15,816 nucleotides of DNA, taken from IMG/VR virus record IMGVR_UViG_2711768076_000018; one strand, given 5' to 3'. The notes below the pieces were generated by a model. That model saw only the letters and a program-made list of their open reading frames with translations. It did no database searches and was not told where the DNA came from. A program made the translations under genes and the position numbers. This stretch comes from a virus. Taxonomy: Duplodnaviria > Heunggongvirae > Uroviricota > Caudoviricetes. Shown piece by piece: positions 9,251 through 15,816 of this stretch (the stretch's first letter is position 1; each line of letters starts with the position of its first letter).

Positions 9251-9676
9251 TTAAAACGGTATGTTATCCCCGTACGGGTCATCGTGCTGGCTTGTCTGTT
9301 GTTTTGCCCTGTTCAGTGCGTCAGTGGCCTGGCCCTGTTGACCTTTTTTGCCGCCCGGTCGCGCCGTTCGCGCACTGATTACGCTGTCTGCAATAACCTG
9401 CCAGCCCTGCCGCGTTTCCCCGTTCTGGCCTGTCCACTGGCTCACCTGCATGTTACCCGCCACGCTCACCAGTTCGCCTTTGTGGTGTTTTGCCAGTGCG
9501 TCGGCCTGTCTGCCAAACGCCAGGACAGATAACCACATCGTCGCCGTTCCGTCATCTGCCTGGCTGCACGGCAGGGGAACCGCCATACTCGCCATCGCCA
9601 TTTGTGTCCCTTTGCTGGTGGTCTTTAACTGCGGGTCAGCCACCAGCCGCCCGTAAGCCGCTATCTGTGCTGTCAT
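9251..9676 (-). CDS. ssb: single-stranded DNA-binding protein
   Basis: 141 aa with an OB-fold N-terminus (YGRLVADPQLKTTSKG ...), a Gly/Gln-rich linker and an acidic tip DDPYGDNIPF (compare DDDIPF in E. coli SSB). ATG 9676 overlaps the upstream stop. Confidence 0.85.
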   Translation of the reverse strand: MTAQIAAYGRLVADPQLKTTSKGTQMAMASMAVPLPCSQADDGTATMWLSVLAFGRQADALAKHHKGELVSVAGNMQVSQWTGQNGETRQGWQVIADSVISARTARPGGKKGQQGQATDALNRAKQQTSQHDDPYGDNIPF

Positions 9677-12555: not shown

Positions 12556-13012
12556 GGCTTACATCCTCAGGAAATTTTCTTCTATAACGCGCCTCTGCCA
12601 CATATTCCGCATAATCGGCGGCGATATTCAGTACATCAAGCCCCGTTGATTTATATTCTCTCGTGGAAAGTAAGAAAAAAGCCGCTCTAATAAGCTCTGG
12701 CATTGACGAAAGCGCATCAGCCGCATCATCAGGAACGCCGGAAAATTCCTGTTTCAGGGAATTAAAACGATCATCACGCATAACCCCCCCATTTTCACAA
12801 TCAGCAATCAGGATGGCTTTAGCCTCATTCAGCGCCATATCCGCACTAAGTTGCATAACAGCCAGTGAGTGAGGAACGAAAGCCCCGGCATATTCTGTTT
12901 CGCTGGTGGCGCGCTTATGCGCCTTGTCTGCGATAACAGAAATATCAATCAGCGCGTGCATCAGCGTTTTGATGGCTTCGGCGGCTGCGTCCGGACGGGT
13001 GTTATTGCACAT
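12548..13012 (-). CDS. hypothetical protein (154 aa)
   Basis: ATG 13012 overlaps the upstream stop by 11 nt. Confidence 0.5.
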   Translation of the reverse strand: MCNNTRPDAAAEAIKTLMHALIDISVIADKAHKRATSETEYAGAFVPHSLAVMQLSADMALNEAKAILIADCENGGVMRDDRFNSLKQEFSGVPDDAADALSSMPELIRAAFFLLSTREYKSTGLDVLNIAADYAEYVAEARYRRKFPEDVSHA

Positions 13013-13208
13013 GGCGTACCCCCTGACGAATACGGGCAGCGAATACCATCACGCAGCCATCAGGAGATTGCTGACGCGCTTCCTGTTCGCTGGTGGCCTC
13101 AATGGTAATCACGCGCGGTTGTGCCGTGCTCAGGGCGATAAAACGCCAGATGTATTTATTCAGGTTGTACGAGTCCCGCCCTTGCGGGTGTCTGGTATAA
13201 TTTCTCAT
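13002..13208 (-). CDS. hypothetical small protein (68 aa), first gene of the leftward replication operon
   Basis: ATG 13208 with GAGG SD. This is the in-frame C-terminal part of a 374-aa ORF-track call that is itself implausible. Confidence 0.4.
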   Translation of the reverse strand: MRNYTRHPQGRDSYNLNKYIWRFIALSTAQPRVITIEATSEQEARQQSPDGCVMVFAARIRQGVRHVQ

Positions 13209-13407
13209 AGCTGCCTCGATACTTCTGCTATCGTTGGTGGTTAGAAGCCCGTTGGTGTTGGTAGCACCTGCGGGCTTTGTCTTTTCATCGATTACCTTAA
13301 TAAAGGTGTCAGCCACTATACTAGTGACAGGTGTCAGCCACGTCAATAGTGTTTTTCTATTTTCTTGTGTGTATACTGTCAGCCACCTAATAACAAGGAA
13401 ATCAGAT
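13209..13407. promoter_or_regulatory. divergent promoter/operator region with three TGTCAGCCAC repeats
   Basis: TGTCAGCCAC at 13307-13316, 13332-13341 and 13377-13386. The third copy overlaps a TATACT -10-like hexamer upstream of the plus-strand gene at 13408. On the minus strand the repeats read GTGGCTGACA and contain -35-like TGACA. Confidence 0.45.
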
Positions 13408-13587
13408 ATGGCAACGAAAGCAGTTAATGGAAAATCCAAAAAACTTGAGGCACGAGTACCCCATGCAATAGCTGACGCTGTAGAAAATTTAAAGGAAGAA
13501 GGCGAAAGCACTGGGCAATTTATCGTTTCGGCGCTTGAAGGTGAGATCAAACGCCGCCAGCGCCGAAAGGCCAAAGAGCAGGAATAA
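13408..13587 (+). CDS. small ribbon-helix-helix-like DNA-binding protein (59 aa), candidate regulator
   Basis: ATG 13408 with AAGGAA SD. The predicted strand-helix-helix pattern (KLEARVPHAIADAVENLKEEGESTGQFIVSALEGEI) and basic C-tail fit an RHH protein. It is one of only two plus-strand genes in the element and diverges from the replication operon. Confidence 0.55.
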   Translation: MATKAVNGKSKKLEARVPHAIADAVENLKEEGESTGQFIVSALEGEIKRRQRRKAKEQE

Positions 13588-13644
13588 CCATCACCAGCGC
13601 CGTGGTGTAAGGTATTACGGCGCATTGCTATGCAGGACAACACA

Positions 13645-13818
13645 ATGACCGATAAAGAATTGACCAAAACATTATCACCGACACGGAAAAGACGACGCAG
13701 AAAGATAGAGCATGAATCAGAAAGATTCGCGCCATGTGCTTTTGCCCTTGAGCAATTCCTTAAAGAGTACAGGGAAAAGCGCTCATTGCAGGTATGGCAA
13801 CGAACTGAACCAGACTGA
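13645..13818 (+). CDS. hypothetical small basic protein (57 aa)
   Basis: ATG 13645 preceded by AGGA at 7-nt spacing. Followed by a plus-strand terminator at 13885-13913. Confidence 0.35.
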   Translation: MTDKELTKTLSPTRKRRRRKIEHESERFAPCAFALEQFLKEYREKRSLQVWQRTEPD

Positions 13819-13884
13819 TTGCATTGCCCACCAGCCGCAAATGTGGCATTGTTGGTGATGCTTTTGTTTTCCCTTGTTCCCACT

Positions 13885-13913
13885 GGCGACCCTTTTGCGG
13901 TCGCCTTTGTTTT
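13885..13913 (+). terminator. intrinsic terminator for the plus-strand small-gene unit
   Basis: GGCGACC-cttttgc-GGTCGCC hairpin followed by TTTGTTTTGCTT. Confidence 0.65.
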
Positions 13914-13951
13914 GCTTGTTATCCGGCAATAGTGGCGCTTCACCACACGGT

Positions 13952-14038
13952 TGATATAATTCCCCTGCACTGATCCATTTTTTTCGCAGCAGGTTAATTG
14001 TTCAGAAAGGCGGTTCCTTATCGGGGCCGCTTTTTTTA
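13952..14038 (+). ncRNA. candidate small RNA (about 70 nt) from an extended -10 promoter to an intrinsic terminator
   Basis: TGaTATAAT at 13952-13960 is a consensus -10 with extended TG motif; the -35 is poor. Terminator hairpin GCGGTTCC-ttatc-GGGGCCGC plus T7 lies at 14010-14037. No ORF with an RBS lies between. Confidence 0.3.
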
Positions 14039-14150
14039 TGCCTGAAAATACCCGATAACATGGCTTTTTAGTTTCACCAGGACGAACGAAGCCCCGCCCC
14101 TGTTCGGGCGTATATCCAGTATTCATGGTTAGATCTCTGTGTTAGTGGAT

Positions 14151-14175
14151 GGCTGGCGGCGGTGCGCCGCCAGCC
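14151..14175 (-). other. perfect 11-bp GC-rich hairpin 3 nt downstream of the alpA stop
   Basis: GGCTGGCGGCG-gtg-CGCCGCCAGCC with no U-tract on either strand. Possibly a transcript-stabilising or Rho-related structure. Confidence 0.4.
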
Positions 14176-14178
14176 TGA

Positions 14179-14367
14179 TTAGTGAACTGCCTCGCGGCTG
14201 TCCTTCCATGCCAGAACTTCGGATAAAGACCAGCCAACGGAACGACCGCCGAGTTTACGCCGTGATGGGAATTGTCCGGTCTTCTCCAGGCGATACCGAC
14301 ATGAGCGGCTCAGGCCTGTAAGTTGCTGACATTCTTTTTCACGTATAAAGCGATCTGTGCTTAACAC
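14179..14367 (-). CDS. alpA: AlpA-family (Xis-like winged-helix) transcriptional regulator
   Basis: 62 aa with the AlpA signature: a helix-turn-helix around TGLSRS and a downstream GWSLSEV motif (compare VGW in CP4-57 AlpA). GTG start at 14367 with a strong AAAGGGGGAA SD. Sits immediately downstream of int. Confidence 0.8.
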   Translation of the reverse strand: MLSTDRFIREKECQQLTGLSRSCRYRLEKTGQFPSRRKLGGRSVGWSLSEVLAWKDSREAVH

Positions 14368-14410
14368 AATTCCCCCTTTGTTGTTTCTTAAAGAGTCATT
14401 GGGTGGATTA

Positions 14411-14458
14411 TTGGGTTGGGTTGTGTCTGATTGTGTCAGGATGATTCAGAGTTGGCAA
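14411..14458 (-). promoter_or_regulatory. candidate alpA promoter overlapped by 10-bp-phased TTGNGT repeats
   Basis: Minus-strand TTGCCA (plus 14453-14458), a 17-bp spacer, then CACAAT (plus 14430-14435). Plus-strand repeats TTGGGTTGGG / TTGTGTCTGA / TTGTGTCAGG at 14411-14440 have exact 10-bp phase. Confidence 0.3.
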
Positions 14459-14530
14459 ATGTTGAGGCCGTATGGTTTACAGAAAGAGGAACAATCAGGA
14501 TAAAATCATTTAAATTCATGTTAATACAAA

Positions 14531-14560
14531 GGCATAAAATCTCGTTTTATGCCTTTTTTC
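14531..14560 (-). terminator. intrinsic terminator between int and alpA (bidirectional-capable)
   Basis: GGCATAAAA-tctcg-TTTTATGCC hairpin, with TTTTTTC following on the plus strand and TTTGTATT on the minus strand. Confidence 0.6.
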
Positions 14561-14650
14561 TTACGCGTTAAAGCGTTATTCGCTAATGTATAAAAAACCA
14601 GTCACACAAATAAAATCAGTCACTTATAAACCTGTGTACTTTTTCGCCTC

Positions 14651-14700
14651 TTGTTCGTGGTTGTTCCACGTTGTTTCACATTGTTCGCCGTTGTATCTGT
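14651..14700 (+). promoter_or_regulatory. five tandem 10-bp-phased TTGTTC-type repeats just 3' of int
   Basis: TTGTTCGTGG TTGTTCCACG TTGTTTCACA TTGTTCGCCG TTGTATCTGT. The first 18 nt are identical to the array upstream of the capsid operon (8374-8391, opposite strand). Confidence 0.5.
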
Positions 14701-14742
14701 GTGCTTATCCAGTATGCGCATACTGAAAAAACACGAAAAAAA

Positions 14743-15816
14743 TTATTTTCTTCTGGCTGCTGGTAGTGCGGTTACGTTTTCATGTGCTCCCGCCAGTATC
14801 CCTAACCGCTCCGTCCACATATCCAGCGCATTGCGTTTCGCATCCAGATAACGGGAGTGATTATAGACTCGTTGCATCCCTGGCATCTGGTGTCCTGTAA
14901 GCTGCTCCACGACATGCGGATCAACGCCTAAATCGTTCAGCATGGTTGTAAAGGTGCGCCGGATGTCATGCAGTGACCAGTGGGGGTGATTAAGCCTCCT
15001 GTGCGCTAATCTTCCATACTGCGATACGCTGGCCTCCTGTTTCACTTCCCCCAGCAATAAGCCCGTGTGCCTGTTCTGCTCCACCAGCTGCGTGATGAAC
15101 GGCAGTATTGCTTCCGGTATAGGCCGGAATATGGCTACCTTCGTTTTGCTGTGCTCCTTCGGAACGGTCCAGAGCATTTCGGTAAAATCCCACTCGCCGA
15201 TCTCCGATAACCTAAGTTCGACCGTCCGGCATCCGAACACAATCAGGAGGCGGATTAGCGCGATGTAGTAGGGGGAAAATATTTTTTTGTCCAGTGCCTG
15301 CAATAATTCGCCCAGCTCTTTATTGCTTAAGACACGTTCGCTTATATCCGGTTTTTTCCCAACGTCCGCTACGTTCAGATCATCGAGAACGTTACTGATT
15401 GCATAGCGCCGCCTCCGGCAGTACTTAAGCGCCTGTTTGCATGTCTGTAGCACGAATCCGGCAGTAACAGGTGTTCGCTTTGCCACCTGGTCAAAGCAGG
15501 CCAGCCAGTGCCGTAGCTCGCATTTATCCAGCGGCATAGCACCAATTTTGGTGATTATGTTTTTATTGATCCGGCTTTTCAGTGATTCGTAATCTGTGCG
15601 CTTTTCCTTTGCGTACGACTCAAGCCAATAGGTGAGCGCATCGCCAACCGTTACAGGCTTTAACGCTTCCTGCATGGTGTAATTCAGTTCATAGCGTGGA
15701 TTTTTCCCCTCAGCCAGCCATGCGCGACACTGGGCGGCTTTTTCCCTGGCTGCTTTCAGACTCAGATCGGGATAATTTCCCAGCTTAACGCGTTCAGGTT
15801 GTGTCCCTCTTCCCAT
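14743..15816 (-). CDS. int: tyrosine integrase (P4/CP4-57 type), 5'-partial
   Basis: 357 aa visible, with the C-terminal catalytic region (HDIRRTF ... YNHSRY). The region LGNYPDLSLKAAREKAAQCRAWLAEGKNP aligns, from memory, to around residues 55-85 of P4-type integrases, so about 45 N-terminal codons probably lie beyond the window. Confidence 0.85.
   Translation of the reverse strand: MGRGTQPERVKLGNYPDLSLKAAREKAAQCRAWLAEGKNPRYELNYTMQEALKPVTVGDALTYWLESYAKEKRTDYESLKSRINKNIITKIGAMPLDKCELRHWLACFDQVAKRTPVTAGFVLQTCKQALKYCRRRRYAISNVLDDLNVADVGKKPDISERVLSNKELGELLQALDKKIFSPYYIALIRLLIVFGCRTVELRLSEIGEWDFTEMLWTVPKEHSKTKVAIFRPIPEAILPFITQLVEQNRHTGLLLGEVKQEASVSQYGRLAHRRLNHPHWSLHDIRRTFTTMLNDLGVDPHVVEQLTGHQMPGMQRVYNHSRYLDAKRNALDMWTERLGILAGAHENVTALPAARRK

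Follow-up and report, generated by a model that had tools for sequence, protein, structure and literature searches.

Introduction

In bacteriophage λ, OOP, a 77-nt antisense RNA transcribed from the promoter pO and ended by an intrinsic terminator, overlaps the 3′ end of the cII mRNA and brings about RNase III-dependent cleavage. In the immI region of phage P22, which also encodes the ribbon-helix-helix proteins Arc and Mnt, the 68-69-nt sar RNA is antisense to the ribosome-binding site (RBS) of ant. Here we describe an element that may belong beside these RNAs: a promoter-like sequence followed by an intrinsic terminator at positions 13952-14038 of a 15,816-nt stretch of viral DNA (IMG/VR record IMGVR_UViG_2711768076_000018), which as a whole is called the window below. 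By its gene content, the window is a capsid-forming phage-inducible chromosomal island (PICI), a phage satellite of Escherichia coli. The unit lies between a group of regulator genes and alpA, the gene of the island activator. From its sequence and conservation, we read it as a candidate gene for a small RNA, well formed, conserved and so far without annotation, whose product is most likely a cis-antisense regulator belonging to the island's immunity zone.

For this zone, the immunity region of P4 provides the point of comparison. In P4, eta/kil adjoins the alpA homologue, and translation of Eta prevents transcription termination (PMC10111431). In both P4 and the PICIs, the integrase/AlpA zone is followed by a “Bro zone”, of which P4 eta is the prototype. 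Without translation of eta, the premature termination in P4 is reportedly Rho-dependent, as Forti et al. are said to have found in 1999. Among the E. coli islands, AlpA activates the genes of EcCICFT073 as well as its own promoter, and the alpA operon of that island is transcribed beyond alpA (PMC6092414). When alpA overexpression led to uncontrolled island replication, the cells suffered in both growth and viability; for these islands, a repressor is not known (PMC6092414). Because AlpA activates its own synthesis, because uncontrolled replication harms the cell and because no repressor is known, a brake of some kind would be needed.

A promoter-terminator unit convergent to alpA

A first-pass annotation, made from the DNA letters alone, had pointed to a TGaTATAAT upstream of a hairpin with a run of seven T. 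Both are present (coordinates of all features are given in Table 1). The sequence matches an extended −10 promoter of the σ70 type (TGnTATAAT), for which the −35 is dispensable. Such promoters tolerate a poor −35, and the poor −35 found here explains why the consensus scan missed this one. The sequence TGNTATAAT occurs twice in the 15.8-kb window against 0.48 copies expected, a count reached by 17 of 200 shuffles; both copies are on the + strand inside one 1-kb regulatory gap, and ~45-50 nt downstream of each begins a + strand hairpin with a T-rich tail. The −35 and the spacer are covered by an imperfect inverted repeat, which reads GTGGCGCTTCGCCAC (perfect) or TGGTCATTTCGACCA in relatives, with a 3′ arm that is often imperfect. 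This repeat may be an operator, or it may be without function.

The terminator at the end of the unit, here named T2, has the G+C-rich stem, the short loop and the U-run of an intrinsic terminator. Its stem had been described as 8 bp of GC; the eight pairs and the strength hold, but only six pairs are G-C and the other two are G·U. Owing to these two, which become C·A mismatches on the − strand, the hairpin is a stable one in + strand RNA (−14.9 kcal/mol); in − strand RNA it is far weaker (−9.1 kcal/mol), and the U-run is absent there as well. The scan did not flag T2 because, with an AAAG upstream, pairing can continue from the stem into the T-run (14 pairs); a poor −35 and a T-run swallowed by the stem thus account for both missing flags. 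The second terminator, T1, ends the + strand regulator operon just upstream of the unit. It was flagged by the scan (hairpin −14.2 kcal/mol, z = −4.84) and, in agreement with the first-pass annotation, would isolate the unit from upstream transcription. In the CFT073 island, the T1 site carries a different, fully paired stem, GGCCACC/GGTGGCC.

The distance from the −10 to the T2 stem is 49 nt. We infer a start at G13967, 7 nt after the −10, which would give a transcript of 70-72 nt, close to the ~70 nt expected beforehand. As had also been noted, no open reading frame (ORF) lies on the + strand between promoter and terminator: the predicted RNA stretch has no ATG or GTG, and its sole TTG frame (13999) passes the terminator without a stop. 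The predicted fold of the whole RNA, taken as 73 nt (−21.1 kcal/mol, z = −2.15), has a single stable hairpin. A further hairpin at the 5′ end, CCTGC/GCAGG, was considered and dropped, as its pairing is not consistently kept among variants.

Conservation of the unit among related islands

More than 100 distinct IMG/VR loci were gathered by the pattern of the core, the conserved stretch in front of T2, and 80 more through the neighbouring gene for the 62-amino-acid protein, a sample unbiased with respect to the core. The core is present in 67 of these 80. Three arrangements were found. In cassette A (the window and the CFT073 island), the 62-amino-acid gene is followed by T1, TGATATAAT, the core and T2. 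Cassette B (the islands of O55:H7 and of O157:H7 between roxA and phoQ) consists of the core and T2 without TGATATAAT, and cassette C (13 of the 80 loci) of a T1-type terminator alone. BLAST matches from other islands (H23-H38, H53-H55) begin at 13985 and end at 14040, delimiting a 56-nt block of core and hairpin. A search with the 19-nt degenerate core pattern in one genome per species returned chance matches only, save for Shigella flexneri.

Within cassette A, TGATATAA is invariant in 33 distinct variants, the final T of the element being replaced by C once. The bases on either side vary among relatives, and because these changes alter the amino acids of a frame on the − strand (see below), the conservation of the promoter lies at the level of DNA. 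This invariance is the main argument that the element is more than a chance occurrence. T2 is found in relatives in two fully paired versions, GCGG[C/T]TCC/GGGGCCGC and GCGCTCC/GGGGCGC. The end of the T-run is also the exact point where homology between islands ceases; beyond it, the downstream sequences fall into at least five unrelated classes. The invariant TGATATAA, the pairing of both hairpin versions and the end of homology at the T-run together make a small-RNA gene of ~71 nt likely. Cassette B has its own promoter-like site, TTGCCC-17-TATCAT, with the −10 ending 37 nt before the core and with hexamers constant in all B variants; for this reason, either cassette could give rise to a small RNA, the 3′ 55 nt being shared. 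A near-palindrome, TGATAGC-G-GCTATCA, overlaps the cassette-B site (locus L005, 1436-1464, from O55:H7; the same in the O157:H7 island, L168).

The same observations can be read without a separate RNA. T2 would then be a back-up terminator or insulator shielding alpA, and TGATATAAT would be silent and conserved by close kinship, which we consider rather unlikely. In islands lacking TGATATAAT, T2 is indeed the only terminator, 44-95 nt past the stop of the last + strand gene, but there the cassette has the conserved promoter-like site described above. T1 alone serves the 13 cassette-C islands, and in some loci T1 is followed by another hairpin and T-run with no convincing promoter between them; since T1 is already strong, however, T2 would rarely be needed in cassette A. 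The cassette-A alignment is sampled shallowly (mean column identity 91%), which favours kinship as an explanation, whereas a perfect extended −10 that stays invariant while its flanks vary is unexpected if the sequence is neutral. Finally, 25 nt of unpaired sequence before T2 are conserved across cassettes, and a terminator alone needs no such stretch.

Table 1. Features of the candidate unit, its twin and the surrounding island, with positions in the window.
Feature	Position	Strand	Details
Extended −10 element TGaTATAAT	13952-13960	+	hexamer 13955-13960; −35 GTGGCG poor
Imperfect inverted repeat GTGGCG-CTT-CACCAC	13932-13946		covers −35/spacer of the candidate promoter
Predicted small RNA, ~71 nt	13967-14037	+	5′ ~43 nt largely unstructured; 3′ end formed by T2 hairpin and U-tail
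Conserved single-stranded core CGCAGCAGGTTAATTGTTCAGAAAG	13985-14009	+	common to islands differing on both sides
Terminator T2	14010-14037	+	stem GCGGTTCC 14010-14017, loop TTATC, GGGGCCGC 14023-14030, T7 14031-14037
Terminator T1 of the + strand regulator operon	13885-13914 (hairpin 13885-13905)	+	GGCGACC-CTTTTGC-GGTCGCC, tail TTTGTTTTG
Stop-free frame, 374 codons	14126 to 13002	−	ATG 52 nt after alpA stop; ends as Icd/Kil-like protein
Twin unit	13193-13286	+	TGgTATAAT 13193-13201; hairpins 13217-13233 and 13245-13277; tail TTTGTCTTTTC
Icd/Kil-like gene	13002-13208	−	
Operon upstream of the unit	13408-13818	+	YlcI/YnfO-family gene 13408-13587; 62-aa ORF 13630-13818
alpA, island activator	14179-14367	−	Pfam Phage_AlpA, E = 2.7e-18; convergent to the candidate RNA
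Integrase	14743 to beyond 15816	−	
D5-type primase	12020-10206	−	
ProQ/FinO-domain protein, 176 aa	8684-9214	−	Pfam ProQ, E = 1.2e-23; adjoins the SSB gene

A long open frame opposite the unit

The unit had been placed as an isolated small RNA between the regulator genes and alpA. A conserved, isolated unit convergent to alpA is what we find; the opposite strand, however, is not empty. It is occupied by a long stop-free frame, which runs antisense through T2, the promoter, T1, the 62-amino-acid ORF and the YlcI-family gene. Stops are absent from this frame, compared with 17 and 18 in the other two − strand frames, and none of 2000 dinucleotide shuffles reached 306 open codons. Of 115 distinct loci from related islands, ~100 keep the frame that passes through the core open, over 227-819 codons. 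Cassette lengths of 46, 52, 148, 154 and 160 nt are all 1 mod 3 and thus differ by multiples of three. Of the three other lengths, 159 and 161 nt are seen where the frame is broken; the third, 192 nt (0 mod 3; four variants), exemplified by locus L079 with an open frame of 414 codons, is unexplained. The long frame appears to be under selection to stay open.

In the window, the candidate RNA covers codons 30-54 of the frame. In the ATGTTCAT class (e.g., L006, L007), the Shine-Dalgarno sequence (SD) and the ATG of the frame are located 3-9 nt beyond the 3′ end of the RNA. In these islands, of which there are many, the RNA would cover the frame from about codon 3, where pairing is able to block initiation. 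Because the 374-codon frame runs through the unit, the RNA would be antisense to this frame and not to alpA, and its obvious target lies in cis and not among alpA or helper-phage transcripts in trans.

Outside the C-terminus, the translation of the frame looks like antisense noise: over the unit it is rich in Cys, Ser and Arg, it matches no family except at the C-terminus, and it changes freely between islands. The first 22 codons (MNTGYTPEQGRGFVRPGETKKP, 14040-14126) are fairly conserved among islands, with several synonymous differences, and the stretch 14040-14126 holds a GGGCGGGG-containing hairpin. A codon-position test of the first 29 codons gave 11, 13 and 14 variable columns at positions 1, 2 and 3, with no clear coding signature. 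Third codon positions of the long frame fall on those of the + strand genes. In RefSeq/PGAP records, a truncated “hypothetical protein” or an “Icd-like” pseudogene is annotated across the candidate RNA (13589-14126; NZ_CM128601.1, NZ_AP043644.1), which is probably an artefact of protein calls made on the long frame elsewhere, in other genomes. In EcCICFT073 (L004, ~1735-1925), a 190-nt insert lies between T2 and alpA and extends the long frame by a Bro-N/anti-repressor-like fragment (weak PHROG matches, Ant families).

Targets in trans and described RNAs

A different proposal is that the RNA acts in trans, with GGUUAAUUGUUCA as its seed, on host or helper-phage mRNAs and with Hfq, host ProQ or the ProQ/FinO-domain protein of the island as chaperone. 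The predicted RNA is built as such regulators typically are: its 5′ part is unstructured, a single-stranded stretch is conserved, and a terminator hairpin followed by a U-tail forms the end; nevertheless, we regard this proposal as improbable. The first-pass annotation had named alpA and helper-phage transcripts as possible targets, and neither found support: in a duplex search of the island, sites other than the one in cis did not exceed −33 kcal/mol in strength, a value that shuffled queries equalled (mean −30, best −34.6), and a collection of 50,697 phage genomes contained no similarity or extended complementarity to the unit. The RNA is also not among the Hfq-bound small RNAs listed for O157:H7, whereas a perfect target is available in cis.

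The same annotation had suggested that the 3′ end could be bound by a ProQ/FinO protein. The island in the window does encode a protein of this kind, and among relatives its gene was seen only with the TGATATAAT cassette, in 9 of 48 cassette-A islands versus 0 of 37 with cassette B, the loci not being independent; most islands with the unit nevertheless lack it, and the link between protein and RNA is weak. The FinP/FinO system of F-like plasmids is similar in that an antisense RNA with a terminator hairpin is found in an element encoding a ProQ/FinO-domain protein. It differs in that FinP has two stem-loops and covers the RBS of traJ, while the candidate RNA has one strong hairpin and in the window would pair inside the frame and not with an RBS, and in that most islands with the candidate RNA have no ProQ/FinO gene.

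No Rfam family was found for the unit, either with the whole window at the gathering threshold or with positions 12800-14800 at E ≤ 10; a match to Atu_C8 with 17.6 bits was taken as chance. A full-text literature search with the DNA and RNA strings of the core and terminator returned no paper. Several described RNAs were considered and set aside. Esr41 (RF02676) is encoded on a different island, SpLE1, and its family gives no match; AgvB (RF02702), AsxR (RF02703) and STnc100 (RF02076) have no Rfam match at the unit. The Pas small RNAs of enteropathogenic E. coli are located in lambdoid prophages, PasB in structural operons of true phages, and the unit has no phage match.

It is very improbable that the conserved block acts through the − strand, as the start of an Eta/Bro-like protein or as a structure or protein site in the alpA-operon mRNA or DNA, with the + strand signals as by-products: the frame does seem clearly selected to stay open, has a Bro-N/anti-repressor-like fragment in CFT073 and shows several synonymous differences between islands in codons 5-19, but its translation over the unit is the family-less, freely changing sequence described above, the G·U pairs of T2 are C·A mismatches on that strand, and a T-run and a TGnTATAAT have no meaning there.

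Likeness of the long frame to P4 eta/kil

Two profiles are shared with P4: phrog_2790 is matched by AlpA and by P4 Vis, and phrog_1743 by the Icd-like protein and by residues 73-137 of the P4 ORF, its Kil part. In a direct BLASTP comparison of the Icd-like protein with the P4 ORF, the similarity is not significant (E = 3.4), and the link is made via the shared PHROG profiles only. The gene order is as in P4: the long frame comes right after the alpA/vis homologue, stands before the primase operon and has a Kil/Icd-like end. The frame therefore appears to be the counterpart of P4 eta/kil. That its translation prevents premature termination receives indirect support from the absence of stops and from the cassette lengths that differ by multiples of three.

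In P4, it depends on small RNAs of this zone whether transcription extends into the replication genes, and the same is proposed here. The two elements differ in the origin of these RNAs: the CI RNA of P4 is cut from the eta strand and pairs with nearby sites there, whereas antisense RNAs with their own promoters and terminators are predicted in the window. The models of C4 (RF01695, clan CL00128) and isrK-seqA (RF01394) gave no match in the window at the gathering score, nor at E ≤ 10 in 12800-14800. Both match P4 and several related islands, and they are absent from the window and from the CFT073 and O55/O111 islands. In other related islands (L052, at 9391-9576, L163, L197, L239 and others), C4 and isrK RNAs of the P4/P1 type and a second icd-like copy are found on the − strand besides the + strand module; since some islands carry both, the P4-type RNAs and the module can coexist. 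The long frames of related islands with C4/isrK reach 819 codons.

A twin unit at the start of the icd-like gene

The other of the only two copies of TGNTATAAT belongs to a second unit, whose TGgTATAAT is located inside the first codons of the Icd-like gene. A twin RNA of ~78 nt is predicted from ~13208 (fold −35.9 kcal/mol, z = −5.07), and it would be antisense to the start codon, the SD/RBS and the leader of this gene. In relatives, the −10 reads TGGTAT(A/G)AT, and the large hairpin has at least five versions, all of them paired but with loops that differ widely; several versions contain G·U pairs valid on the + strand only. The SymR model (RF01809) matches the twin over its full length below threshold, with 23.7 bits against a gathering score of 61. 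In the SymR/SymE system of E. coli, as in the twin, a cis-antisense RNA of ~77 nt has its promoter inside the target gene and covers the RBS; the candidate RNA at 13952-14038 differs in giving no SymR match. The two units are of the same design, and each start of translation in the nested eta/kil pair has its own, which makes them more credible together than either would be by itself.

A possible cis-antisense brake

With its own promoter and terminator, no ORF and an overlap with a gene on the opposite strand, the unit has the structure of a gene for a cis-antisense small RNA. Among described RNAs of this class, OOP resembles it in size, in a constitutive-looking promoter, in the intrinsic terminator and in its orientation, convergent to a key regulator of a temperate element. 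OOP also pairs within or after a coding region and not at an RBS, as the RNA predicted in the window would. However, there is no sequence or Rfam relationship between them, and OOP overlaps the regulator gene itself, whereas 141 nt separate the end of the candidate RNA from alpA, and its overlap is with the next frame. sar is similar as an antisense RNA in an immunity region with small DNA-binding proteins and an anti-repressor/Bro- or Icd-type gene. Where the long frame starts beside T2, the candidate RNA would cover its first codons as sar covers the start of ant; here, too, a sequence relationship is missing.

From the sequence elements, their conservation and the open frame, the following mechanism can be proposed. 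The extended −10 would start transcription near G13967 and T2 would end it at ~14037, giving an RNA of ~71 nt fully complementary to the mRNA from the alpA promoter, over the 5′ part of the eta-like frame. This frame would link alpA to the icd/kil-like gene and the replication genes. Pairing of the RNA would block translation of the frame or trigger cleavage of the duplex, and leaky transcripts of the alpA operon would then terminate before the toxic icd/kil gene and the replication genes. The island would thus stay quiescent until a helper phage boosts alpA. The twin unit would act likewise at the RBS of the short icd/kil gene. That the unit is a small-RNA gene and that its product, as a cis-antisense RNA, targets the eta-like frame in its 5′ part and damps read-through from alpA is a tentative proposal, which we hold to be quite possible though short of probable.

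Several observations weigh against this proposal. In the window, the RNA would pair 90-160 nt inside the frame and not at its start, so that a simple block of initiation cannot apply there. The whole mRNA of the + strand operon is already antisense to the frame, and a dedicated small RNA is thus not strictly needed. In the 13 of 80 islands without core and T2, a T1-type terminator ends the + strand operon, which means that the RNA is dispensable for the island family, and in loci of the L172 type, tandem terminators stand at this position with no obvious promoter in between. Covariation inside a single version of the T2 stem does not reach significance, 88 of 500 shuffles being as good, and for that reason the argument for T2 rests on the two stem versions and on the intrinsic strength of the hairpin. 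Finally, an Hfq-crosslinking catalogue of small RNAs in enterohaemorrhagic E. coli (O157:H7 Sakai, EcOnc list) has no entry labelled SpLE2. The O157:H7 island compared here, between roxA and phoQ, which we take to be SpLE2/CP-933C, carries the variant without TGATATAAT (cassette B), and the catalogue is mild evidence against a strongly Hfq-bound RNA from that cassette.

The island and its regulatory zone

Positions 1-1236 of the window are allC (Peptidase_M20), and the remainder is the satellite island, whose main genes are all on the − strand. Besides those in Table 1, they include a DUF4222 gene, the SSB gene and the genes for capsid, prohead protease, portal, TerS and TerL. Near-identical copies of the island are found between allC and allE in E. 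coli chromosomes, and the region is matched in 1576 of 5426 complete E. coli genomes (~29%), including EcCICFT073 and the O157:H7 island between roxA and phoQ. The 970-bp gap from the Icd-like gene to alpA, inside which the candidate unit is located, is the regulatory zone.

The two genes of the + strand operon in this zone, the YlcI/YnfO-family gene and that for the 62-amino-acid protein, are annotated by PGAP in near-identical genomes. Their proteins match phrog_949 (E = 6.3e-23) and phrog_21027 (E = 1.5e-15), families of unassigned function; to us, the sequence of the YlcI-family protein reads like that of a ribbon-helix-helix protein. Upstream, TGTCAGCCAC forms three direct repeats, at 13307, 13332 and 13377 (region 13307-13386), which overlap a promoter-like site on the − strand, TTGACG-17-TAGTAT (13346 to 13318), and the stretch just before the YlcI-family gene. 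The repeats are likely to be the operators of a divergent promoter pair. On the other side of the unit, 4 nt past the alpA stop and ahead of the ATG of the long frame, 14151-14175 is a perfect 11-bp inverted repeat, GGCTGGCGGCG-GTG-CGCCGCCAGCC. It is followed by a U-run on neither strand, and the CFT073 and O55:H7 islands have a hairpin like it.

Implications for Gram-negative PICIs

How Gram-negative PICIs are kept quiescent is an open question, and the unit and its twin are concrete candidates for the brake. The unit sits in a type of element carried by ~29% of complete E. coli genomes, opposite a long frame that is kept open despite the genes overlapping it on the other strand. A wider claim would be that a large family of E. 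coli satellites, capsid-forming and other PICIs devoid of a CI RNA of the P4 type, is silenced by a pair of antisense RNAs, one against the 5′ part of the eta-like frame and one against the RBS of icd/kil, and this we hold to be on the unlikely side. If it were true, each RNA would block translation and so cause termination before the replication genes, and the only reason for the long “junk” frame to stay open would be to serve as a translatable track for anti-termination. The antisense pair would then be the missing negative regulator of Gram-negative PICIs.

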